Source: Candidatus Dojkabacteria bacterium (GTDB lineage Bacteria; Patescibacteriota; Dojkabacteria; SC72). From it: a stretch of 64,000 bases of DNA. Positions 17,072 through 61,946 of this stretch are shown here, in pieces. Made by a program: the position numbers and the translations under genes. The stretch covers positions 28,534 to 92,533 of the forward strand of contig DUTP01000001.1 of assembly GCA_012842045.1 (NCBI GenBank), written 5' to 3'. Every line of letters starts with the position of its first letter. Within the stretch, counting starts at the first letter, position 1. The notes beneath the pieces are model-generated. The model did no database searches and was not told the origin of the DNA. It saw only the letters and a program-made list of their open reading frames with translations.

Positions 17072-19813
17072 ATGGATGAAGATAAAAAAACAACACAAGA
17101 AAATATAGATACAGTAGAGCAGAACTCCACATACAATTCTGGAGAGATTACTAACAGATCAATCGTAGATGAAATGAAAGGTAACTACCTTGACTACTCT
17201 ATGTCCGTAATCGTCTCAAGAGCTCTACCAGAAGTAAAGGATGGGCTTAAGCCATCACAAAGAAGAATTCTTGTAGCTATCAATGATTTAGGCCTAACAC
17301 CTTCTTCTCATTACAGAAAATGTGCAAAAATTGCAGGAGATACATCAGGTAACTACCATCCACATGGTGAGGTTGTAATATATCCAACCTTAGTAAAAAT
17401 GGCTCAAGACTTCTCCATGAGATATCCATTAGTAGATGGACAAGGAAACTTTGGTTCCATTGATGGAGATGAAGCAGCAGCCATGAGATACACAGAGGCG
17501 AGAATGGGGAAGATTACACCAGAACTCATTAATGAGATAAACAAGGGAACGGTAACATTCATACCAAACTATGACGGCACAAGACTAGAACCAACAGTAT
17601 TACCTGCAGGTTTTCCAAATGTACTAGCAAATGGTGGAGATGGAATTGCAGTAGGTATGGCTACGAAGATACCTCCTCATAACCTAACAGAATTAATTAC
17701 TGCTTTACAAAAAATGATTTCCCTAGGTAACAAATGGGAAGGTAAAGCAGTATATGATGAATTAAGAAAACAGAAAGAAAAAGGTGAGAGAATCCCACAA
17801 TTACTTAATGCACAACCAGCTGATTACTTAGAAAACTACATAGATACAAAAGATGCTACCAACCAAGAGGTAATTGATACTCTAAGAGCAAAGATAGCAG
17901 AAGATGGAAATGTCCTCTATCCTGAATTTAAATCGGACATTACTCCAGAAGAGTTAGTTGAGATAATACCAGGACCTGACTTCCCAACAGGAGCAACAAT
18001 ATATGACAGAGAAGAAATCCTTAACACATATGCAACCGGTAGGGGAAGAATATTACAAAGAGCAAAAGCATCAATTGTAGAGGGCAAACAAGGAAAATAC
18101 CAAATCGTTATCACCGAAATACCTTTCCAAGTAAACAAAGCAAACCTCATTACAAAGATTGCTGACTTGGTAAAGGATAAAAAGATTAAAGGAATTTCCG
18201 ACATTATAGATGAATCCAATATCGAAGGAATGAGAGTTGTTGTATATCTCAAGAGAGATGCACAACCAAAGGCAGTTCTAAACAAGCTCTACAAATATAC
18301 AGAGATGCAAAAAGTCTTCAATGCCAATATGATTGCATTGGTTGACAAAGAGCCAAAGACATTACCACTTAAGAGATTCTTAGAACTCTTCCTTTCTTTC
18401 AGATTAGTAGTAACAATCAGAAGATTTGAATTTGATTTAGCACAAGCAAGATACAGATCTCATATCTTAGAAGGATTACTTAAAGCAATTGATATGCTTG
18501 ATGAGGTAATTGCTACAATTAGAGCTTCAAAAACACAAGAAACAGCAAAAACAAACTTAATGGATAAGTTTGATTTTACAGAAGTACAAGCCCAAGCAAT
18601 TTTGGATATGCAGTTAAGAAGATTAGCAGCACTTGAGAGAATGAAATTGCAGAACGAACAAAAAGAATTGAAAGAGAAGATTAAGGAATTAAATACTCTT
18701 CTTGAAGATCCAGAGAAGATGTTGGAAGTTGTAGATGCTGATCTTGAGATTATTAAAGAAAAGTTTGGAGATGAAAGAAGAACAAAGGTTGTAAAAGGTA
18801 AAGTTGATGAGATATCTGAAGAAGACATGATTGCTTCCGAAGATACTTTAGTAACAATTACCAACTCTGGATATGTAAAGAGATTAAATCCAAATACATA
18901 CAAAGCACAGAATAGGGGAGGCAAGGGTGTTTCAGGAGGAGAAACAAAAGAAGGAGATTTCATAGAACATGCTTTCTTGTGTAATACTCATGATGAACTA
19001 CTACTTTTCACAAACAAAGGTAAAGTATATACACTTCGAATATTTGAAATCCCTGATTTAGGTAGAACAGCAAAAGGCTTACCTATCGTTAATCTTGTAC
19101 AACTAGACCCCGATGAACTTATAACTTCAGTATTAACCAGAGATCCAAAGGGTAAGATTGCAGAAGGAAAGAGTACAGAAGAGGCTAAAGAGAAGGAAAT
19201 AGCAAGAGAGTACAAATATCTTTTGATGGCAACAGAGAATGGTGTTGTAAAGAAAACTGCACTCCCTGAGTTTAAGAAGATTAGAGCAAATGGTTTAGTA
19301 GCAATTAAGTTAGATGAAGGAGATCAATTGATAGGGGTTAAAGCTACAACAGGTGATGACCAAGCAATTATCCTCACAAGGGAAGGTAAGTCTGTGAGAT
19401 TTAAAGAAACAGATGTTAGACCTATGGGTAGAAGTACAAGAGGTGTAACAGGTATTAAGTTTAGAAGTAAAGAGGATAGGGTAGTAGGTATTGGAATTGT
19501 AGAGAGTGATGAACAGCAACTTCTAACTCTTTCGGAATATGGTTATGGTAAGATGACACCACTTAAAGAGTATGCAACTCAGAAGAGAGGTGGTACAGGT
19601 ATCTTCACATTTAGAGTAACACCAAAGACAGGTAATGTAGCTTGTGCAAGAATCTTAAGAGAAGAAGATGAAGAGATTGTTGTAATATCTGAGAAATCCA
19701 AGGTTATTAGAGCAGATCTTAAGGATGTGCCAAAGCTCAAGAGACAAACTTCAGGTGTAAAGATGATGAATATTGGAACTGGTGATAAAGTAGCAACAGT
19801 AGCTATACTCTAA
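17072..19813 (+). CDS. gyrA: DNA gyrase subunit A (with a ~75-aa insertion and an N-terminal extension)
   Basis: Active-site AAAMRYTEARM, QRRILVA, GPDFPTG motifs and C-terminal beta-pinwheel repeats. 913 aa. Confidence 0.95.
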   Translation: MDEDKKTTQENIDTVEQNSTYNSGEITNRSIVDEMKGNYLDYSMSVIVSRALPEVKDGLKPSQRRILVAINDLGLTPSSHYRKCAKIAGDTSGNYHPHGEVVIYPTLVKMAQDFSMRYPLVDGQGNFGSIDGDEAAAMRYTEARMGKITPELINEINKGTVTFIPNYDGTRLEPTVLPAGFPNVLANGGDGIAVGMATKIPPHNLTELITALQKMISLGNKWEGKAVYDELRKQKEKGERIPQLLNAQPADYLENYIDTKDATNQEVIDTLRAKIAEDGNVLYPEFKSDITPEELVEIIPGPDFPTGATIYDREEILNTYATGRGRILQRAKASIVEGKQGKYQIVITEIPFQVNKANLITKIADLVKDKKIKGISDIIDESNIEGMRVVVYLKRDAQPKAVLNKLYKYTEMQKVFNANMIALVDKEPKTLPLKRFLELFLSFRLVVTIRRFEFDLAQARYRSHILEGLLKAIDMLDEVIATIRASKTQETAKTNLMDKFDFTEVQAQAILDMQLRRLAALERMKLQNEQKELKEKIKELNTLLEDPEKMLEVVDADLEIIKEKFGDERRTKVVKGKVDEISEEDMIASEDTLVTITNSGYVKRLNPNTYKAQNRGGKGVSGGETKEGDFIEHAFLCNTHDELLLFTNKGKVYTLRIFEIPDLGRTAKGLPIVNLVQLDPDELITSVLTRDPKGKIAEGKSTEEAKEKEIAREYKYLLMATENGVVKKTALPEFKKIRANGLVAIKLDEGDQLIGVKATTGDDQAIILTREGKSVRFKETDVRPMGRSTRGVTGIKFRSKEDRVVGIGIVESDEQQLLTLSEYGYGKMTPLKEYATQKRGGTGIFTFRVTPKTGNVACARILREEDEEIVVISEKSKVIRADLKDVPKLKRQTSGVKMMNIGTGDKVATVAIL

Positions 19814-20180: not shown

Positions 20181-21029
20181 ATGATTTTTACCAATATTCT
20201 TAAAAAAATAATCATCTCAATATCACTTGCTCTTCTTTTTGGACAACAAGATATTGATTTAATTAAACAAAAAGAGATTAATCCTCCACAAGAGGAAGCC
20301 ACGGAAGCAGTTGCCGAAGAAGAAGAAAAAGAAGTTGAGATTGCTATAGAAGAAAAAAAAGAAGTCAGTACTCCACCCCAAAAAGCATCTAAACAGAAAG
20401 TAGAAACACAAAAGAATTGGTGGTCATATCCTACAGATATCAAGCCAACAAAAAGACATGGAGATGACCTATTAGTACTAGTAAACAAAGAATATGCTCT
20501 TTCTGCTGATTATGTTCCTGCAGATTTAGTTTCAGCTGCAAAATCAGGTATTAGAAAAGGAAATCAACATATGGTTAGAAATATAGTAATAGCTGATTTA
20601 ACAGAATTAGTTAAAGCAGCTAAAAATGATGGCATAGACCTTAGTATTAGGTCAGGATATAGGTCATATAGTACACAGGTTAGTACATATCAATATTGGC
20701 TTAGATATAACAATAATGTAGCAGATAATGCTGATAAAGTTTCTGCTAGAGCTGGACATAGTCAACACCAATTAGGTACAGCAATTGATTTTAGTACATC
20801 AGAAATACAGGATGGAATAGGGGGGAGATTTCATACAACAAAAGCGGCAAAGTGGTTAGAGGAGAATGCTTGGTGTTATGGTTTTGTAATATCATTTCCA
20901 CAAGGATATGAATCAGTAACTGGTTATAATTATGAGAGTTGGCATTATAGATATATTGGTAAAGATAATGCATTAGAGATGATTAATAGTGGAAAGATAT
21001 TAGAAGTATATCTTAGGGAGAAGAATTAA
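20181..21029 (+). CDS. D-alanyl-D-alanine carboxypeptidase, peptidase M15B (VanY-like), membrane or secreted
   Basis: N-terminal hydrophobic segment. M15 zinc-ligand motifs SGYRSYSTQ, HSQHQLGTAIDF and ESWHYRYIG. Confidence 0.8.
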   Translation: MIFTNILKKIIISISLALLFGQQDIDLIKQKEINPPQEEATEAVAEEEEKEVEIAIEEKKEVSTPPQKASKQKVETQKNWWSYPTDIKPTKRHGDDLLVLVNKEYALSADYVPADLVSAAKSGIRKGNQHMVRNIVIADLTELVKAAKNDGIDLSIRSGYRSYSTQVSTYQYWLRYNNNVADNADKVSARAGHSQHQLGTAIDFSTSEIQDGIGGRFHTTKAAKWLEENAWCYGFVISFPQGYESVTGYNYESWHYRYIGKDNALEMINSGKILEVYLREKN

Positions 21030-21100: not shown

Positions 21101-21140
21101 GGGGAGGCCCTTCGTAAGATCGACCTTCCCATTTTTTATC
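21101..21140 (+). terminator. Rho-independent terminator after the VanY-like gene (possibly bidirectional)
   Basis: GGGGAGG CCCTTCGTAAGATCGA CCTTCCC hairpin (7 bp, one G-U) followed by ATTTTTTATCTCTC. Confidence 0.55.
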
Positions 21141-21753
21141 TCTCACATATATACTTTTTTAATCTTAAGAAATCCATATATTCTTTATAGTACTTCTCTT
21201 TAATAACTCTAGCTGTTTTATTACGATGAGAATATATGATAAATTCCTTTTCTTTAATTTTGAAATATTTTAATAATATCTCAAAATCTCCATCACCAGA
21301 GAATAGGATAAAAGAAGAATATTCTTTTTCTAAACGCATCATGTCAAATGTTAAATCAACATCACAGTTAGCTTTGTATTTTACACCTCCTTCTTTTGTA
21401 CGAATTCTTTTAATCGGTTTAAGTCTTAATATATATCCAAATTCCTGTAATTTTCTAAAGAACTTAGCTCTTTTGAGGTATTTTAGTAAATAGGGTTTCT
21501 CTGTAGCTTTACCCATTTTGTAAAGATTTTCTAAATAACTTACCAACTTATCTATTGGAAATTGTGAAGTAGGATAACAGTCTAAATCATACCCTGACAC
21601 CTCAATTCCAGAGTAATAAAAAACTTTCTTAGCATTGTATCTCTGTTTTAGATGCTCAATTAGCTTCTTGTAATCAATTCTCCAATTTAAATCATTAGGA
21701 GTACCATAAAACATATTTGAAGCATCAATAAAAACATAACAAGGTTTGAGCAT
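21136..21753 (-). CDS. NYN-domain (LabA-like PIN-fold) protein
   Basis: VFIDASNMFYG ... YYSG core resembles NYN/LabA nuclease domains. ATG at 21753; the track ORF starts at a TTG at 21852. Confidence 0.45.
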   Translation of the reverse strand: MLKPCYVFIDASNMFYGTPNDLNWRIDYKKLIEHLKQRYNAKKVFYYSGIEVSGYDLDCYPTSQFPIDKLVSYLENLYKMGKATEKPYLLKYLKRAKFFRKLQEFGYILRLKPIKRIRTKEGGVKYKANCDVDLTFDMMRLEKEYSSFILFSGDGDFEILLKYFKIKEKEFIIYSHRNKTARVIKEKYYKEYMDFLRLKKYICER

Positions 21754-21896
21754 AATATATAGATAGTAGCATTTAATTATTAAATCCAGATTAACTTGGT
21801 GATATCCATTATTCGTAAGTAAATGCTTCCCCAAAAAGAGTTTCTTGTACAAGTTCTTCTTTTTTTTTGCTCAAAGTGTGATAAACTAAATCTAAG

Positions 21897-22544
21897 ATGA
21901 AGAAACAAACTGTTTTTCAAAAATTCAATAACATATATATAGCAATAGGGTTCTTCTTTCTTACTACTGCTCTAATAGCTATCATTATCCCAATATGGCC
22001 ATATTTGTGGTATAGAATCCATCCAGAAGAAACAAATAAAGAGACAGAAAAGATTATCAAAGAAGTTGTTCCTCCTAAAGTTGAAATAGAAGAGAAAAAA
22101 ACAGAATCTGTAAGATTAGATATTCCTCCATTAAATACATCACTTCCAGAAGGAAAGTTTGTAAAAATACCTAAAATCGAAGTTAACTCTCCAATATCTA
22201 CAAGTAAAAATTCTGATGAGGGATTAAAAAATGGTACATGGATTGTAAAAGAGTATGGGACACCAGAGCAACCAGATCTGCCAATTATCTTAGCCGCACA
22301 CAGATTCGGGTATTCTTCATGGAGCACGGAGAAGAGAAACAGGATATCTTACTACAATCTACCCAAGACAGGTGATGGAGATGAGATAACCATATATTGG
22401 AATCAGAGGGAATATAAGTACAAGATATATAAGTCAGAAGAGTCCACCTACATTACTGATTACACTGCAGACCTCATACTATATACATGTAAATTTTTCA
22501 ACTCCCCAATTAGAATATTCCGATATGCCCAAAGAATACCTTAA
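21897..22544 (+). CDS. Sortase-family transpeptidase (membrane-anchored)
   Basis: N-terminal TM. Catalytic His in ILAAHR, Cys in LILYTC, Arg in IRIFRY; the spacing matches the SrtA fold. Confidence 0.7.
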   Translation: MKKQTVFQKFNNIYIAIGFFFLTTALIAIIIPIWPYLWYRIHPEETNKETEKIIKEVVPPKVEIEEKKTESVRLDIPPLNTSLPEGKFVKIPKIEVNSPISTSKNSDEGLKNGTWIVKEYGTPEQPDLPIILAAHRFGYSSWSTEKRNRISYYNLPKTGDGDEITIYWNQREYKYKIYKSEESTYITDYTADLILYTCKFFNSPIRIFRYAQRIP

Positions 22545-22583
22545 TTTTCAAAGGTAGACATTAAAAGGTGCTGTCCCATAGTG

Positions 22584-22612
22584 TTGCATATTAGGGTGAA
22601 AGATGCTATAAT
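22584..22612 (+). promoter_or_regulatory. Near-consensus sigma70 promoter upstream of the mini sorting-signal protein
   Basis: TTGCAT, 17-nt spacer, TATAAT (22584-22589 and 22607-22612), about 35 nt upstream of the ATG at 22646. Confidence 0.5.
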
Positions 22613-22645
22613 AATCTTGCATTTAAATTAACTAGCCCTTTAAAT

Positions 22646-22891
22646 ATGAGGAAGTTATTTTCAGCAATCTTAGCTGTCATTATGCTCTCCTTAATAAATG
22701 CAGACATTGCACTAGCTAGTGGTGGTGGAAATCCATACGGTCCATATAATCCATATCCACCTCATGACCCACTACCAACAGGTTTTGGTGATACTAAAAC
22801 CTTCTACCTAGTAGCATTAGTAGCATTTACAGTAGGTATGATCATTTTAGCAATAGCTAAGAACCTTAAGGGCAAGCAGTCTGCTGCCTAA
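22646..22891 (+). CDS. 81-aa secreted Pro/Tyr-rich mini-protein with a C-terminal sortase-type tripartite sorting signal
   Basis: Signal peptide with ALA-S cleavage site, then a GGGNPYGPYNPYPPHDP core, LPTG motif, hydrophobic TM (FYLVALVAFTVGMIILAIA) and basic tail KNLKGK. Immediately downstream of the sortase gene. Confidence 0.6.
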   Translation: MRKLFSAILAVIMLSLINADIALASGGGNPYGPYNPYPPHDPLPTGFGDTKTFYLVALVAFTVGMIILAIAKNLKGKQSAA

Positions 22892-22968
22892 ATTGAGTAG
22901 ACTGCTCCCTTAGGAGCTTAAATGCAACTATTTCTATTTACATATTTAAAACAACTTTATCTATAAAA

Positions 22969-23730
22969 ATGAAACTTTCTTTGGTAATACCAACATACAA
23001 AAAACAAAGAGAAGTATTGGATCAGTTAGAAAGACTCTACGGTTTTCTTTCTAGAAAAAATCCAAATTTTGAACTCATCTTCGTAATCGATGGGTATGTT
23101 GATAATACTAAAGAAATTTTGGAGAAGTATATTAAAGAAAACAGATTAAAAAAGATTTCCATTATTGGTTACAAAGAAAATAGAGGTAAAGGATATGCTG
23201 TTAGATATGGTATGAAAAGAGCAAAAGGAGATGTCATTGGCTTCATTGACGCAGATACAGATATTCAGATTAGAACACTAGGATATGCTCTCAAAGCTCT
23301 TAAAGATGAATCTGTTATGGCTGTTGTACCTTCCAAATTACACAAAGATTCTAATATAGAGATGACTACCTTCAGAAAGATTCTTTCTGCAGGTCTCTTC
23401 TTAACAAACAAATTAATACTTTCATTACCTAAGAATGTAAGTGATGTAGGTTGTGGTCTTAAACTTTTTAGAAAAGAATTAGTAGAAAGAATACTTCCTA
23501 AATTAACAGTTGACAGATTTGCAATTGATTCAGAAATCTTAAATGAGATAGGAAAGATAGGGTACAAAGTAGCAGTAATTCCTTTCTTCTTAAACAAAAA
23601 CAGAAGTGAGAGTACATCAACTCATCTTAGAGAAACTCTTAGAATGTTAAAGGATATCTTACATATTGCTAAGGAAGACAAAATGGCATTTATCACAGGT
23701 ATTGAAATGAGGTTTTGGAAAGCTAATTAA
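22969..23730 (+). CDS. Family 2 glycosyltransferase (dolichol/polyprenol-phosphate sugar transferase-like)
   Basis: LVIPTYK, ELIFVIDGYVDNT, GKGYAV and DADTD (DxD) motifs of the GT2 GT-A fold. Confidence 0.75.
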   Translation: MKLSLVIPTYKKQREVLDQLERLYGFLSRKNPNFELIFVIDGYVDNTKEILEKYIKENRLKKISIIGYKENRGKGYAVRYGMKRAKGDVIGFIDADTDIQIRTLGYALKALKDESVMAVVPSKLHKDSNIEMTTFRKILSAGLFLTNKLILSLPKNVSDVGCGLKLFRKELVERILPKLTVDRFAIDSEILNEIGKIGYKVAVIPFFLNKNRSESTSTHLRETLRMLKDILHIAKEDKMAFITGIEMRFWKAN

Positions 23731-24803: not shown

Positions 24804-24942
24804 CTTATAGTATAATACAGGCAGTTATATAACCTGCTCATTAACAAAAGATTAACTACTTCATATCAGCACTAAACTGTTGACTTTCAACCCAACCTAT
24901 AGTATAATATGTGTACAGTTAAATAGCCTGCTCTTTAAAATG
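24804..24942. repeat. Imperfect direct repeat (~47 bp x2, period 92 bp) in the intergenic region upstream of the 25229 gene
   Basis: cttatagtataatacaggcagttatataacctgctcattaacaaaag versus cctatagtataatatgtgtacagttaaatagcctgctctttaaaatg; each copy contains a TATAAT-like box. Confidence 0.5.
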
Positions 24943-36362: not shown

Positions 36363-36756
36363 GGAGTAGGGGGCTGTTTTTTTGAATTCCTGGAAAAAGA
36401 AAAAAGAATGAGAAAAATAGAAGAAGGAACAAGAAAGAACAGATAAGGATGAGGAATATGATATGTTGAATGTTTAAATAATTAAGCATTGTAAGTACTT
36501 TCTTGATTTTAAATATACAGAACCGCACATAATGGCGATTATACTCGGTTACATATTCTAGAATTGTAACATCTTTTCTAAGAGAGTGGTACCCTGATGA
36601 TGGACATTGATTGAATCTTAAATCTTCCCAAATCTTTTATTTAATCTCTACCTATTATAATACCCAAGTTAATAATATTATTAGCAGAAACTTGTCCACA
36701 CTGATTACTATAGGATATTGAACACTATAGGTTTCACTGGTGGCACCCCCTACTCC
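36363..36756. repeat. 11-bp GC-rich perfect inverted repeat pair (GGAGTAGGGGG / CCCCCTACTCC) bracketing a ~370-bp AT-rich noncoding segment
   Basis: Copies at 36363-36373 and 36746-36756. A T7 run follows the first copy. No ORF in between; an internal direct repeat actatagg x2. Confidence 0.6.
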
Positions 36757-40435: not shown

Positions 40436-40679
40436 AATTTCTCCTTGCCTCTCGGCGAACTTTCACAGAATTAAGTTAACTCATTCTGTGTTTAATCTTG
40501 ATTGCACTCTTGTGCTTAATACAATCCTAAATATATACATTAAGAATCATATTAAGCACAAAAGGTATCAAACAGGAGAAATAAATTTAAAAACCTTTGT
40601 TGTTAATGAGCAGTATATCTAACATACTAAGATATTAGATATCTACTTACATTATACTACACTATAGGGTTGTTTGCAA

Positions 40680-53034: not shown

Positions 53035-54867
53035 ATGAACCCAAAAACCACAACAAAAATAGCCACAGTAATCCTAACCACAATATCACTACTCCTACTA
53101 CCAAAACTTGTATATGCACAGAAACAGGCCGACTTTATCATCAACACCTACACAAAAATTCACTACACAACAGGACAGGATTTTGTAACTGTTGTAAGCA
53201 ATTATGAGAAGAAAGTTGAGAACGGTACTTTCTACTTAACAAAAGAAGGAGAAAAAGTCTTCCATATTCCAGATTTAGAAAAGGATATTGATAATATTGA
53301 GAAAGAGAGAAAATTTAAACAAGACAACTTAACTGTAACAGATATGAATAAAAACCCCATTAAGTACAGTGTTGAACAACTGACTCTTGGACAAGGAATG
53401 TACGTACATGTCCCTCATTACAGAGAAACAACAAAATCAATGCCCTACTCTATTATTATGACATATAAAACACATGACAATATCATTAAAGCTGGAAGAT
53501 TAGTAACATTAATTGGATCCGCTATACCAGAAAACACTCAAAAAGAAAAAGATGATATTAAAAGTGGTACAACTACCTCGTTGAACTACTATTTCTCCTT
53601 TGTTGTAGATGAGAACATACCCACATTAGCAAAAGCATATCCTAAATTTACCAAAAAGAAAGAAGACAACTTAACATATTACAATTTTAGTACAGAAGAG
53701 AGAAAGTCTGCCTCACCGACACTAGAATTTGGGACTGATGTGATATATCGCTTTGAGTTAGAGTATAAAACTCCCAAGACAGATTCTTTCATACCTGAGG
53801 AATATGCAGGACTGTTTAAAGCCCTTTCTACAAATATATACGAGATGTCTTTACCAAGAGAATATTCAGAAACCAATCAAGAAGTATGGATCGATACTAT
53901 ATCTCCTACACCAAAAAATATCTTTCGGAATAGAGAAGGAAATGTAATAGCTTCATTTGAGGTACCATCAAATAAAGAAGATATAATCAAAGTATCAGGA
54001 TACATTCGACAGAGTAAGCAACCATACACAGTAAACCATCTAGAGAAACTAAATATTGATTTTAAAGAATATTTAGAAAAAATTGGTCAAGACAAAGGGA
54101 ATATTAAATATTTAACTTCTACTAAGTATTGGGAAATAGGAGACCCTTTTATACAAGACGCTGCAGCATCACTACTCAAAGGAAAGAAAACTCTGTTTGA
54201 GGTGGTAGATGCTAATTATGAATATGTCAACGAGAAATTAACATATGATGAAGAGAAGGCAAATTCAGAAAATACTAGAATTGGTGCGGTCAATGCACTT
54301 GCTGGTGGTGCTTCTGTCTGTATGGAGTATGCAGATTCTATGATTGCTTTGCTAAGAGCACAGGGAATACCTGCTAGAGCAGCTTTAGGATATGCCAATA
54401 TTATGGATACAGAGAGAGTACAAGTGAGACATCAGTGGGTACAGATTTGGATCCCTGACCATGGTTGGTTTAGCATTGATCCAACATTTGAGAGTAAGAA
54501 TAGAAAGATGGGACAAATGATTGACAGAGTTCTTTGGGAGACATTTTACGATGATTCCCTCTCTAATATAAGTATTTTTTCCATAAATGATGAGGATAGC
54601 TTCTCTGAAGACAATTACAAGGTAGAAATCTTTGCTGTTGATAATATGTCTGGTGGAAATATGAAAAAATATAATGAGATAATCCCAGAAACAAATATTG
54701 ATGATGAAGCAAGATATAATATGGTCACTAAATCTAATTCTTTCTTAAAAACCACCGTATTAGGAAGAGCTTTACTAGTCACAGCCCCTGTAATAGTACT
54801 AATTATCTTTATGACTATTCTAATTGCTCTAATTAAGAAAGTTATTAGAAGAGAAAAAAAGAAATAG
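53035..54867 (+). CDS. Secreted, membrane-anchored transglutaminase-like cysteine-protease-domain protein
   Basis: Signal peptide. Cys-His-Asp triad context GASVCMEYADSMIALLRAQGIPAR ... RHQWVQIWIP ... SIDPT. C-terminal TM and basic tail. Confidence 0.7.
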   Translation: MNPKTTTKIATVILTTISLLLLPKLVYAQKQADFIINTYTKIHYTTGQDFVTVVSNYEKKVENGTFYLTKEGEKVFHIPDLEKDIDNIEKERKFKQDNLTVTDMNKNPIKYSVEQLTLGQGMYVHVPHYRETTKSMPYSIIMTYKTHDNIIKAGRLVTLIGSAIPENTQKEKDDIKSGTTTSLNYYFSFVVDENIPTLAKAYPKFTKKKEDNLTYYNFSTEERKSASPTLEFGTDVIYRFELEYKTPKTDSFIPEEYAGLFKALSTNIYEMSLPREYSETNQEVWIDTISPTPKNIFRNREGNVIASFEVPSNKEDIIKVSGYIRQSKQPYTVNHLEKLNIDFKEYLEKIGQDKGNIKYLTSTKYWEIGDPFIQDAAASLLKGKKTLFEVVDANYEYVNEKLTYDEEKANSENTRIGAVNALAGGASVCMEYADSMIALLRAQGIPARAALGYANIMDTERVQVRHQWVQIWIPDHGWFSIDPTFESKNRKMGQMIDRVLWETFYDDSLSNISIFSINDEDSFSEDNYKVEIFAVDNMSGGNMKKYNEIIPETNIDDEARYNMVTKSNSFLKTTVLGRALLVTAPVIVLIIFMTILIALIKKVIRREKKK

Positions 54868-58845: not shown

Positions 58846-59274
58846 TTATTTCCCTGTAGAACCAAAACCACCTTCTCCTCTCTCTGTTTCTTCCAGCTCA
58901 TCAGCAACTTCAAGATTATCTTTAAGTGAGAGACATGGAACAACAACTATTTGAGCAAATCTTTCAGTATCGGTTAAGACAATACCACTCTTTGATGTAT
59001 TTATCACCTGAGCAATCACTTCACCTCTGTAATCACTATCTATCACTCCAACAGAGTTTTTTAACATGAGACCTTTCTTACCAAAAGAAGACCTAACAAA
59101 GAGTAGACCAACATATCCTTTAGGTATTTCTAAGTACACTCCAGTATGTATCTCTGCACTCTCATTCGGTTTTACTACAATATCTTTCTCTGTCTTTACT
59201 TTCAAATCTGCTCCAGCTGAAAACTCTGTTTTTACTTCTGGCAGATATTTTTGATTATCTACTTTAATTTTCAT
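58846..59274 (-). CDS. dut: dUTP diphosphatase
   Basis: dUTPase motifs SAGADL, GVIDSDYRGEV and C-terminal Gly-rich P-loop-like tail. Confidence 0.85.
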   Translation of the reverse strand: MKIKVDNQKYLPEVKTEFSAGADLKVKTEKDIVVKPNESAEIHTGVYLEIPKGYVGLLFVRSSFGKKGLMLKNSVGVIDSDYRGEVIAQVINTSKSGIVLTDTERFAQIVVVPCLSLKDNLEVADELEETERGEGGFGSTGK

Positions 59275-60700
59275 TCTTCTCTTTATTTAACTTAATTGCT
59301 AGTTCTTCCAACTTTTCTCTTGTATTCATCAATGGATCTTCCACTACAATATCCAAAAGTTCTCTCAAAATTTCTCCCATCTTAGGACCTTTCTTAACAC
59401 CTATTTTTTCTAGTTGTTCACCGTTGATTTTTAAATCTGATATTTTTAATGCCATATCCTGCTTTCTTACTTCTGCTATTCTTTGTTGTAAGAGAGTAAC
59501 TTCATCTGGTTTGAATGAGCTATATGGGTTTGATTGTGCATCAGCCATTCTTAATTTGAAAAGATCTTCAATGTTCTCCTCTCCTACTCTTTGTATGAAT
59601 CGTCTTACCGCAGAATCAGACCATTGGTGAAGCTCCACATTCTCAATTTCTTCTTCTGTCATCTCTTCCTTTTTATGTGGATAGTGGAACATATGATTTT
59701 CAATTAGTTTTCTTACTCTCAGTATTTCATTCTTAGGGAACTTCATTCTTTTCATAATTTCTTCTGCCATATCAGCACCCATTCTGTCATGACCATAGAA
59801 GTGTCCATTTCCCATATCTGTTCTAGGTTTTGCAATGTCATGAAGTAATGCAGCTAACTTAACACTATCATGAGCTACATCACATGTTCTCAATGCATGT
59901 TCATAGACATCATGAGCATGAAAGAGTTTCTGTTCTACACCTACTCCCTCTAACAATTCAGGTAGAAAGATAGAGAGAAGACCTGTCCCCCTCATTAACT
60001 CAATGCCTACAGATGGTTTAGGAGAATTAAGTAGCATTTTCATAAATTCATCCCTTATTCTCTCCATGGATATTGATTGTGCAACAGCATTAGCTTCTTT
60101 GATTGCATTAAATGTATCCTCCTCTATATCAAAACCTAATTGAGAAGCCATTCTACAAGCCTTAAAAGACCTCAAACCATCCTCTTTAAACCTCTCTATT
60201 GGAGTACCTACTGCCCTAACCAACTTCCTTTTAATATCCCCTACACCATCAAAAGGATCATAGATTGTAACTTGCTTCTGTTCTTTACCATCATCAAGAT
60301 TAATCTTAGAAAGATCTATTGCCATGGCATTAAAAGTAAAATCTCTCCTTCCCAAATCCTTATCTATCTCGTCTACAAACTCAACTGAACTAGGCCATCT
60401 TCCATCAATATACCCAGCTTCACTTCTAAATGTTGTAACCTCTACCTCATATGTCTCACCATGTTCATCTTGCACAAGAACTATCACTGTACCAAACTTT
60501 GCACCAGTAGAAACAGACCTTGGAAACATATTAAGCATCTCATCAGGTAGAGCATTTGTTGCCAAATCATAATCATGAGGAGTTTTTTTCAAAACAATAT
60601 CTCTAACTGCACCACCAACAAGATATGCTTCAAAACCTTCCTTTAACAGAATTCTTGCTACCTTTTGTACATAATTTGGTAAAAATATTTCTACTTCCAT
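59264..60700 (-). CDS. cca: CCA-adding tRNA nucleotidyltransferase (class II polymerase-beta family with HD domain)
   Basis: GGAVRD nucleotidyltransferase motif with the DxD pair; HD-domain motif HDIAKP. ATG at 60700 preceded by AAGAGGG; the track ORF starts further upstream. Confidence 0.8.
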   Translation of the reverse strand: MEVEIFLPNYVQKVARILLKEGFEAYLVGGAVRDIVLKKTPHDYDLATNALPDEMLNMFPRSVSTGAKFGTVIVLVQDEHGETYEVEVTTFRSEAGYIDGRWPSSVEFVDEIDKDLGRRDFTFNAMAIDLSKINLDDGKEQKQVTIYDPFDGVGDIKRKLVRAVGTPIERFKEDGLRSFKACRMASQLGFDIEEDTFNAIKEANAVAQSISMERIRDEFMKMLLNSPKPSVGIELMRGTGLLSIFLPELLEGVGVEQKLFHAHDVYEHALRTCDVAHDSVKLAALLHDIAKPRTDMGNGHFYGHDRMGADMAEEIMKRMKFPKNEILRVRKLIENHMFHYPHKKEEMTEEEIENVELHQWSDSAVRRFIQRVGEENIEDLFKLRMADAQSNPYSSFKPDEVTLLQQRIAEVRKQDMALKISDLKINGEQLEKIGVKKGPKMGEILRELLDIVVEDPLMNTREKLEELAIKLNKEKNEN

Positions 60701-61946
60701 ATACCCTCTTTTTAAATCTTTTTCTAAGAACAGAATACCAGAGAAATATATCAACAACAAGGAGTAAGAGTGTTGGGTAAATTAAATATGTATTATCAAT
60801 CCCTGTTTTTGGTAACTCTTTCAAAGATGAACTTATACCTAAAATCTTTTTATCCTCATCCAAAATATTAACCTGTTCACTCTCTTCTTCTACTTCTGGA
60901 GACAACTCCTCCACATTACTGTTATCCCCCTCTTCTACTAACATAACTGGTGAAGAAGTCATTTTAAAAGGAATCCTCTCAATACAGAAAGCTTCTTTAG
61001 GTTCAGCTAACATCCAACCAGAAACCAGCCCACCATCCATTCTTGCAGAAAACACAGAAACAGAATCAACATTAAAATTGTAACTAAAGTTATTACCAAA
61101 AACAGAACATCTCTTTGAAGAATCAGGAACCTCTACAGTAAAAGAACCAAATGTACCATCCTCTTCAATATTTTCTTTAGGAAGGTAGTATATGAAATTA
61201 GCATCTTCCTGTGGTTCTAAAGAAGCGACACCAAAAAAATCCTTATGTTTAAGATACACACGATTTAATTTATCAGAGCCAACATTTCTAAGTCTAACAG
61301 AAACTTGATAACTATCACCTTCTTCTTGTGCAAAAGCATCTATTAGATAAATTGGATTTTTGATATGTAATTTATCTAGATGCTTTTTTCCATGATGAGT
61401 ATACTCAACATTACCAACACCTGAATACCTGCGTAGAACACCATTTCTAATTACTGTTTGTCCCATATTTAACAAATCAAGAGAATTTAAATCTCCTTCT
61501 CCATTCTCAAATGATGCAAAATCAGTAAAAAAAGATTCTTCTACTGGTTCATTTCTAGTATATGCAACATCAACTTCGGGAATGAAAACTGTATGACCTG
61601 TTTGGTTGGAGTAAAAGTAGGTAACATCAACTACAGACCCAGGAGGCACAGCGACATATGTTCCATCTGTCCCTTTTCTAAAAGGATAACCTGGTTCTTT
61701 GAGCATCCATAAATCCCAATGCACCTGACCTGTCATACTCCCAACTACATTAGCTAAATCATACTCTATTCCACCATGACTACTTGAAGATTCGGGAAGT
61801 GATAAGGAATCGATACTGTAAGCTATTGTTGAGTAAAACAAGTTCTGCTCATTATCACCACTATTAGTAAAACCATCCGCCAACACCGATGTTGTAAAAA
61901 AGCAAAATACTAGAAAAGGAATTATAAATAAAAGAAGTTTTTTCAT
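60630..61946 (-). CDS. Cell-surface protein with signal peptide and C-terminal LPXTG (LPKTG) sortase sorting signal
   Basis: N-terminal signal peptide; C-terminal LPKTG, then a hydrophobic segment and RKRFKKR basic tail. Confidence 0.65.
   Translation of the reverse strand: MKKLLLFIIPFLVFCFFTTSVLADGFTNSGDNEQNLFYSTIAYSIDSLSLPESSSSHGGIEYDLANVVGSMTGQVHWDLWMLKEPGYPFRKGTDGTYVAVPPGSVVDVTYFYSNQTGHTVFIPEVDVAYTRNEPVEESFFTDFASFENGEGDLNSLDLLNMGQTVIRNGVLRRYSGVGNVEYTHHGKKHLDKLHIKNPIYLIDAFAQEEGDSYQVSVRLRNVGSDKLNRVYLKHKDFFGVASLEPQEDANFIYYLPKENIEEDGTFGSFTVEVPDSSKRCSVFGNNFSYNFNVDSVSVFSARMDGGLVSGWMLAEPKEAFCIERIPFKMTSSPVMLVEEGDNSNVEELSPEVEEESEQVNILDEDKKILGISSSLKELPKTGIDNTYLIYPTLLLLVVDIFLWYSVLRKRFKKRVYGSRNIFTKLCTKGSKNSVKGRF

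Follow-up and report, generated by a model that had tools for sequence, protein, structure and literature searches.

We analysed a 64,000-nucleotide stretch of contig DUTP01000001.1 from a Candidatus Dojkabacteria bacterium (the window; G+C 35%), in which the gene for a membrane-anchored sortase is followed by a tiny open reading frame (ORF) of 81 codons plus stop. The enzyme is a genuine sortase of a lineage outside the named classes A-F, and the mini-ORF is a real, selected coding gene. Our data further suggest, with a probability that we put at roughly 55%, that the pair consists of a sortase and its own genetically linked mini-substrate. This proposal is based on the sortase domain with its invariant catalytic triad, the substrate-like anatomy of the mini-protein, a linkage that persists where the neighbouring VanY and GT2 genes are missing, the pattern of selection along the mini-gene and the occurrence of its C-terminal signal on mini-proteins only.

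The sortase and its linked mini-gene

The enzyme, which a preliminary description of this DNA had already named a sortase, matches Pfam PF04203 above the curated threshold (42.5 bits against a cutoff of 26.6, E=6.4e-11) over residues 89-212, and H135 (in AAHRF), C198 (in LILYTCK) and R206 (in RIFRYA) are invariant in alignments of 26 and of 75 homologues with 49-100% identity. Its AlphaFold2 model (mean predicted local distance difference test score 88) comprises a long N-terminal helix (residues 2-41), a disordered linker with low confidence at residues 57-71 and a catalytic domain at about residues 87-214, with the eight-stranded beta-barrel of the sortase fold. The NCBIfam models of the named classes score only 20-23 bits against cutoffs of 140-165 and sequence searches of the PDB with the sortase returned nothing significant, which places the lineage outside those classes; identity to solved sortases is 15-23%, and no single class stands out as the best structural match. 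Two further stretches of the enzyme are invariant among the homologues, a P-x-x-P-Y-x-W-Y-R segment where the membrane helix exits (residues 32-40; 21990-22016) and a substrate-like tetrapeptide, L-P-E-G, just ahead of the catalytic domain (residues 83-86; 22143-22154); conceivable roles for these stretches are a lid or pseudo-substrate and a partner contact.

The mini-gene lies on the same strand, 101 nt behind the sortase stop codon, in agreement with the gap of about 100 nt given in the preliminary description. It has 25 homologues of 73-81 amino acids (63-94% identity), besides one 49-amino-acid fragment and one N-terminally extended entry of 108 amino acids; in their alignment, N35-P-Y, P39-H and P42-L-P-T-G-F-G are invariant and the signal-peptide region is variable. 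Pairwise Nei-Gojobori comparison with 14 relatives gave ratios of nonsynonymous to synonymous substitution rates (dN/dS) of 0.13-0.46, with dS reaching 1.6. When resolved by region, the corresponding ratio of proportions (pN/pS) is lowest, at 0.12, in the mature peptide with the motif, where purifying selection is strongest; it rises to 0.33 in the hydrophobic stretch with the tail and to 0.50 in the signal peptide. The weaker selection on the stretch and tail fits their being a mere generic retention signal. A full-length profile search of 1.84 billion representatives retrieved 48 clusters at 50% identity, all of 43-96 amino acids. The preliminary description had conceded that the ORF might be a chance frame, or a frame not conserved beside the sortase in relatives; the homologues, the dN/dS below 0.5 and the conserved synteny rule this out.

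To place the mini-gene in its genomic context across relatives, one genome per species was scanned, yielding 80 loci with relatives of this sortase (37-90% identity), among them records from Chisholmbacteria, Microgenomates and Woesebacteria, and the mini-family profile was searched in all six frames of each locus. The mini-gene was found within 300 nt downstream of the sortase and on the same strand at 39 loci, and at 23 it lay 0.3-2.5 kb downstream, VanY intervening in nearly every case; a protein that resembles it in architecture only stands at 5 loci, 5 have no mini-gene in the 2 kb or more of downstream sequence present, and at 8 the downstream sequence is too short to judge. Thus, the adjacency that was to be checked in homologues extends, within 2.5 kb, across Dojkabacteria and to relatives in Chisholmbacteria and Microgenomates; of 72 informative species-level loci, 62 have a mini-gene behind the sortase in the same orientation, and the 5 just mentioned have the look-alike.

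Among the five loci lacking a mini-gene, L066 has a masked run of N exactly at the expected spot and is hence uninformative, and L074 and L075 hold a paralogous sortase with a different N-terminus and another genomic context. The metagenome-assembled genome PWIP01 carries both kinds, a mini-linked sortase next to gyrA (L076) and a second sortase without a mini-gene (L075). The paralogous sortase (L072, L074, L075) sits between GT2/GT4 genes and the gene for a 410-amino-acid multi-pass membrane protein, with no mini-gene. At L047, the sortase match lies inside a single open frame of about 500 codons (345-1862) that spans the usual VanY position, and this long frame could be a fusion or a sequencing frameshift.

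The gene order in Dojkabacteria is VanY-sortase-mini-GT2 or sortase-VanY-mini-GT2, and the GT2 gene directly follows the mini-gene in most of these loci, including those in which VanY separates the mini-gene from the sortase; at L092, the mini-gene and GT2 abut and the sortase lies about 1 kb away on the opposite strand, in divergent orientation. These arrangements would suit a bitopic or hairpin protein of an envelope cluster that works with GT2 or VanY, for example as a subunit or acceptor of polyprenyl-sugar glycosylation, its proximity to the sortase then reflecting a shared envelope function and gyrA synteny; the whole block is syntenic, so part of the adjacency comes from common descent. 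We consider this explanation very unlikely, in that the small gene still follows the sortase where GT2 and VanY are absent nearby (L070, L071, L076 and L094-L096) and, as a look-alike, in Microgenomates (L079, L081-L085). Loci L094-L096, which were reached by a search that started from divergent mini-proteins, have the order gyrA-sortase-mini, so that the sortase is the most persistent neighbour of the mini-gene and GT2 is a tight neighbour only within Dojkabacteria. When four of the most distant representatives were looked up, three of them lay on contigs only 515-601 bp long, which offered no gene context.

In the Microgenomates look-alikes, a signal peptide and a Cys-x-Cys or Gly-rich segment precede the sequence H-x-x-V-[DE]-[TA]-G, behind which come a hydrophobic stretch and the tail Y[KR]xxY[KR]xYI[LF]G. 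This type of mini-protein, related to the mini-family but distinct from it, stands behind the sortases of L079, L081-L085 and L070 and has two Cys residues (C-x(6-10)-C-G) along with the H-x-x-V motif and the tail; the Microgenomates/Chisholmbacteria type is likewise absent from Pfam and NCBIfam. The Chisholmbacteria protein at L070, which contains CTPFYGGGVVCGAHTPVDTGF, bridges the mini-family and the Cys-containing look-alikes.

Anatomy and proposed processing of the mini-protein

The precursor is built like a small sortase substrate (Table 1). A predicted Sec signal peptide ends at residue 24 with the A-L-A/S site of the preliminary description, and by rule-based prediction over 107 distinct family members the residue at -1 of the cleavage site is Ala in 103 and that at -3 Val or Ala in 86, both kept while the hydrophobic core varies. 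The core of about 20 residues described earlier corresponds to the predicted final peptide SGGGNPYGPYNPYPPHDPLPT, which is 21 residues long in the window and has a median length of 19 (range 10-40) across the family, where it is rich in Pro (23%), Tyr (13%) and Gly (11%). The motif is followed in the window, after 6-8 residues, by a hydrophobic stretch and then a positively charged tail, and the family spacer from the Thr to this stretch is mostly 5-7 residues, within the roughly 10 residues expected of a sorting signal.

A logo over the 107 members, numbered from the invariant Thr (107/107) as position 0, gives the register P-Y-x-P-H-x-P-[VIL]-[PD]-T-G-[FLI]. Upstream of the Thr, Pro occupies position -9 in 80 members, Tyr -8 in 79, Pro -6 in 70, His -5 in 103 and Pro -3 in 106; position -2 is Val, Ile, Leu or Glu, and -1 is Pro in 55, Asp in 43 and Glu in 4. 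Downstream, Gly follows at +1 in 84 members and Ser, Ala, Phe or Asp otherwise, +2 is Phe, Leu or Ile, and +4 is Asp in 61. The peculiarities of the motif are a Pro at -3 instead of -2 and a conserved upstream His and Pro-Tyr. This register also amends the tripartite signal of the preliminary description: the hydrophobic stretch and the KNLKGK tail stand, whereas the supposed LPTG lacking an x was a mis-registration, the pentapeptide being P-L-P-T-G with Pro as the x.

We also asked which proteins carry this signal. A profile of the last 46 residues of 40 diverse members, run in a word-indexed search of 5.8 billion proteins, gave 45 proteins at E<=10 among 921 candidates, all of 56-84 amino acids, and every match bearing a source name was called hypothetical. 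No large protein with the mini-family signal appeared in this search, the sensitivity of which is limited for short, low-complexity signals, or in 682 kb of related loci; only mini-proteins were retrieved.

We propose the following sequence of events. The 81-residue precursor, expressed from its own conserved promoter, would be exported by Sec and cut by signal peptidase I after Ala24, and its C-terminal hydrophobic stretch and basic tail would retain it in the membrane. The juxtamembrane sequence PY-x-PH-x-P-[VIL]-x-T-G would thereby be presented to the neighbouring membrane-anchored sortase, Cys198 of which would attack the Thr45-Gly46 bond. The acyl-enzyme would then pass the Pro/Tyr/His-rich peptide of about 21 residues to an amine, most probably on a peptidoglycan precursor, and the outcome would be many copies of a very short peptide held covalently on the wall.

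Several observations weigh against this proposal. Within Dojkabacteria, the linkage of the mini-gene to the GT2 gene behind it is at least as tight as that to the sortase. The window has P-L-P-T-G where a canonical signal has L-P-x-T-G, with no Pro at -2, and neither Pfam PF00746 nor the NCBIfam sorting-signal models match it. Instead of Gly, 23 of the 107 members have Phe, Ser, Ala or Asp behind the Thr, and one entire sub-clade has PVDT-F. Conservation extends at least 6 residues upstream of the pentapeptide, to His -5 and Pro-Tyr -9/-8, which exceeds the usual needs of sortase recognition and could reflect another function. In addition, we infer export, the signal-peptidase cut, cleavage at Thr45-Gly46, the acceptor and the abundance of the product from sequence features. 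Finally, SafA provides a precedent for a small membrane protein that stands beside a sortase and is not its substrate.

SafA is a sortase-associated factor of 52 amino acids encoded downstream of srtA in Actinobacteria; it is not a substrate, crosses the membrane once in N-in/C-out orientation, carries an FPW motif, lacks a signal peptide and protects its sortase from signal peptidase (PMC9282373). That the mini-protein is such a factor, a membrane partner that controls the stability, localisation or activity of the sortase and is left uncleaved by it, seems unlikely to us. As with SafA, the sortase is immediately followed (101 nt in the window, adjacent in 39 loci), with phylum-wide linkage, by a small membrane protein that has a conserved motif on the exoplasmic side next to the membrane, and the invariant P-x-x-P-Y-x-W-Y-R of the enzyme could be a contact site. 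Unlike SafA, to which it has no sequence similarity, the mini-protein has two hydrophobic segments, the first belonging to a conserved, cleavable-looking signal peptide with a V/A-x-A site; it lacks FPW and ends in a C-terminus of the sorting-signal type (Thr-Gly, hydrophobic, basic), in which the hydrophobic stretch is under weaker selection than the motif. If the SafA-like explanation were true, sortase-modulating mini-proteins would be extended beyond Actinobacteria.

The sortase might also cleave the mini-protein and give the product a fate other than wall anchoring, namely a free peptide of about 20 residues released by water or a soluble amine, a head-to-tail oligomer or cyclic peptide formed by attack of its own N-terminal amine, or a wall-linked acceptor for LPxTG proteins. 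We regard this as improbable, although sortases are able to use N-terminal amines as nucleophiles, 66 of the 107 members have Gly as the second residue behind the predicted signal-peptidase site (SGGG in the window), and a protein with an LPKTG signal is encoded in the same window. A pilin-type Lys acceptor, moreover, is not conserved, Lys occurring in the mature part of only 40 members. On the other hand, the mature part starts with Asp, Ser or Ala and not with Gly, we know of no natural sortase-made cyclic or head-to-tail peptide, and sequence does not separate these fates from the wall anchoring that we favour.

Promoter, transcript ends and neighbouring genes

The preliminary description had credited the mini-gene with a near-consensus promoter, TTGCAT-17-TATAAT. 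Both boxes are present, and the -10 box is a consensus sequence; the -35 box, however, matches TTGACA in only three of six bases. A generic promoter scan did not list this site, and the promoter-like sites in the region were no more frequent than in shuffled sequence. Phylogenetic footprinting reveals a TATAAT that is invariant in nearly all Dojkabacteria loci and stands about 33-36 nt ahead of the ATG; a -35 sequence of the TTG or TAGAC type lies 16-18 nt farther upstream, together with a conserved CCCATAGTRT. The spacer and the sequence beyond these elements vary, and loci with VanY upstream have the promoter just as those with the sortase there do; this invariance amid variable surroundings shows that the mini-gene has its own promoter.

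The upstream element, in the form CCYATAGTRT, occurs four times in the window, always between genes, against an expectation of 0.53. In related loci it directly precedes -35 boxes of the TTGAC type, and in distant loci it also marks the promoter of the next gene. The copy CCCATAGT was considered as the site of a regulator specific to the mini-gene and probably is not one, the same element standing before other intergenic promoter-like sites; CCYATAGTRT is probably a general, lineage-specific upstream promoter element.

No Shine-Dalgarno sequence precedes the mini-gene, and a leader hairpin masking the start codon was not supported by folding (z=-0.42). Behind the gene, a GC-rich hairpin is present in most loci, with the compensatory stem variants GCCCC/GGGGC and GCGCC/GGCGT; no intrinsic terminator was called there, the hairpin having no T-run and the trailer a folding z of only -1.35. 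The segment directly following this hairpin is the exact reverse complement of the segment at about the predicted transcript start; this start is predicted at about 22619-22620, and the 3' end at about 22917-22930. Across 31 distinct loci, 85.7% of the cells of the resulting 9-bp helix pair, against at most 42% when one partner is slid; double changes occur at two positions (GC 26 and AU 3; CG 24, UA 4 and GC 1), and the covariation score was reached by none of 500 shuffles. This complementarity suggests a self-contained mRNA of about 300 nt with paired ends or, alternatively, inverted operator sites flanking the gene. The covarying ends of so tiny an mRNA are a separate lead for RNA biology.

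A more elaborate scenario would combine these features: the sortase subfamily would mainly process one peptide of about 20 residues into a ribosomally made adaptor that is covalently joined to peptidoglycan as a structural part of the CPR wall, either glycan-bearing through the action of GT2 or, with its x-Gly N-terminus as a surrogate cross-bridge, accepting LPxTG proteins, and would be supplied by high expression from an end-paired mRNA of about 300 nt. We think it quite unlikely that all of this holds.

The gene order around the pair is gyrA, a 75-amino-acid ORF, VanY, an NYN-domain gene, the sortase, the mini-ORF and GT2 (Table 1). The GT2 product has NCBIfam matches to the ArnC, PpgS and AglJ types, all sub-threshold. 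Rfam and tRNA scans of the window found two tRNAs only, both distant from this locus.

The second putative sortase substrate of the window, a secreted protein of 438 amino acids, does have the canonical LPKTG ascribed to it by the preliminary description, with the correction that its ORF runs on the minus strand. Pfam finds no domain in this protein, and no sortase gene adjoins it. Its ORF runs about 30 residues beyond the basic tail (60630-60760, minus strand) and overlaps the listed TTG start of the downstream ORF for a CCA-adding enzyme (59264-60760) by about 130 nt, so that this TTG start is probably placed too far upstream. Another secreted protein, transglutaminase-like and 610 amino acids long, also ends in a hydrophobic stretch and a basic tail, with no recognisable x-T-G motif ahead of the stretch.

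Table 1. Positions in the window of the sortase, the mini-gene with its parts and signals, and other features mentioned in the text
Feature	Position	Strand	Remarks
gyrA	17072-19813		before the 75-amino-acid ORF
75-amino-acid ORF		-	between gyrA and the VanY gene
VanY/LdcB-type D-Ala carboxypeptidase	20181-21029	+	Pfam PF02557, E=1e-36; syntenic neighbour, context only
NYN-domain gene	21136-21852	-	between the VanY gene and the sortase
Sortase	21897-22544	+	215 amino acids, membrane-anchored; Pfam PF04203
Predicted mini-gene promoter	22575-22612	+	CCCATAGTGT at 22575-22584; -35-like TTGCAT at 22584-22589; 17-nt spacer; TATAAT at 22607-22612
5' leader arm TTGCATTTAA	22617-22626	+	at about the predicted transcript start; complementary to 22918-22927
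Mini-ORF	22646-22891	+	81 amino acids plus stop; signal peptide, short Pro/Tyr/His-rich peptide, sorting-signal-like C-terminus
Predicted Sec signal peptide	22646-22717	+	residues 1-24; MRK, 14-residue hydrophobic run, A-L-A before S
Predicted final peptide SGGGNPYGPYNPYPPHDPLPT	22718-22780	+	residues 25-45, 21 amino acids; from the signal-peptidase cut to the Thr
Extended motif P-Y-P-P-H-D-P-L-P-T-G-F	22751-22786	+	residues 36-47; proposed scissile bond T45-G46
Hydrophobic membrane-spanning stretch and basic tail	22802-22888	+	residues 53-71 and KNLKGKQSAA (72-81)
GC-rich hairpin	22904-22917	+	GCTCC-CTTA-GGAGC; 12 nt past the mini-gene stop
3' trailer arm TTAAATGCAA	22918-22927	+	exact reverse complement of the leader arm; directly behind the hairpin
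GT2 glycosyltransferase	22969-23730	+	polyprenyl-phosphate sugar synthase type; Pfam PF00535, E=7.6e-24; context only
CCYATAGTRT site	22575-22584	+	
CCYATAGTRT site	24896-24905	+	
CCYATAGTRT site	36722-36731	-	
CCYATAGTRT site	40659-40668	-	
Transglutaminase-like secreted protein	53035-54867	+	610 amino acids; PF01841; KKVIRREKKK tail
438-amino-acid secreted protein	60630-61946	-	LPKTG, hydrophobic stretch, RKRFKKR tail

Significance and comparison with known systems

If the mini-protein is the substrate of its neighbour, a conserved and probably abundant peptide of about 20 residues would be, to our knowledge, the smallest natural sortase cargo. Bacteria of the Microgenomates type in the candidate phyla radiation (CPR) nearly all have sortases (PMC6744442). 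None of these organisms is cultured, and the mini-protein is a candidate substrate in this context. The motif peptide PYPPHDPLPTGFGD is a concrete, synthesisable probe for a CPR sortase in vitro, and the proposed recognition motif PY-x-PH-x-P-[VIL]-x-T-G could serve orthogonal sortase ligation. The pair also hints that the CPR envelope, where episymbionts meet their hosts, has a constituent not recognised before.

Searches of Pfam and NCBIfam returned nothing significant for the window mini-protein or for seven distant members, the best E values of 0.005-0.5 being meaningless, so a known family is ruled out, and literature searches found nothing on CPR sortase substrates, on this small partner or on its motif. 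The assertion of the preliminary description that a dedicated sortase with a mini-peptide is not a described system thus applies to the mini-protein and its motif, which are undescribed in Pfam, NCBIfam and the searchable literature; the concept of one enzyme with one adjacent target already has precedents elsewhere.

In the Gram-positive paradigm of LPXTG substrates and sortases of classes A-F, the substrate is built as here, from a signal peptide (predicted in the mini-protein), five residues that close with T-G, a hydrophobic segment and basic residues at the end; the enzyme, too, is a Cys transpeptidase anchored in the membrane, of the same fold and with the His/Cys/Arg triad. The pair differs in the P-[VIL]-[PD]-T-G of the mini-family, in which Pro occupies -3 and not -2 and is accompanied by the upstream His (-5) and Pro-Tyr (-9/-8), in a cargo of only 10-40 residues and in an enzyme that fits no class model.

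A closer likeness in the motif is found in Streptococcus pyogenes, where Spy0129, a pilus sortase of class B, cleaves the T-G bond of the pilin signals (E/Q/V)(V/P)PTG, a proven sortase motif (PMC3019223). These signals have the form x-hydrophobic-P-T-G with Pro directly before the Thr, and the PLPTG of the window has the same shape. Across the mini-family, the resemblance is partial: the residue at -1 is Pro in only about half of the members and Asp in 40%, so that x-(V/P)-P-T-G is not conserved family-wide, and there is no match to an NCBIfam pilin signal such as the QVPTGV-class signal. The substrates of Spy0129 are folded pilins with a Lys acceptor, whereas in the window pair the sortase is not class-B-like and the small partner is no such pilin.

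Enzymes with a single adjacent target include a marine-proteobacterial sortase with a vWFA target and the exosortase XrtJ with a PExPT-CTERM protein of about 57 amino acids. XrtJ is similar to the present case in that one enzyme is paired with one mini-protein target that has little beyond a signal peptide and a sorting signal; it differs in belonging to another enzyme superfamily, and its target has no homology to the mini-family (the only match, to NCBIfam TIGR04200 at E=0.43, is meaningless). The marine-proteobacterial sortase differs in its large cargo. Short substrates of the LPXTG type are also found in Enterococcus, in the EF2685/EF0750 family (NCBIfam NF053819, with a profile of length 105), but these have a canonical LPXTG and a mature part several-fold longer, and their similarity to the mini-protein is not significant (E=0.18).

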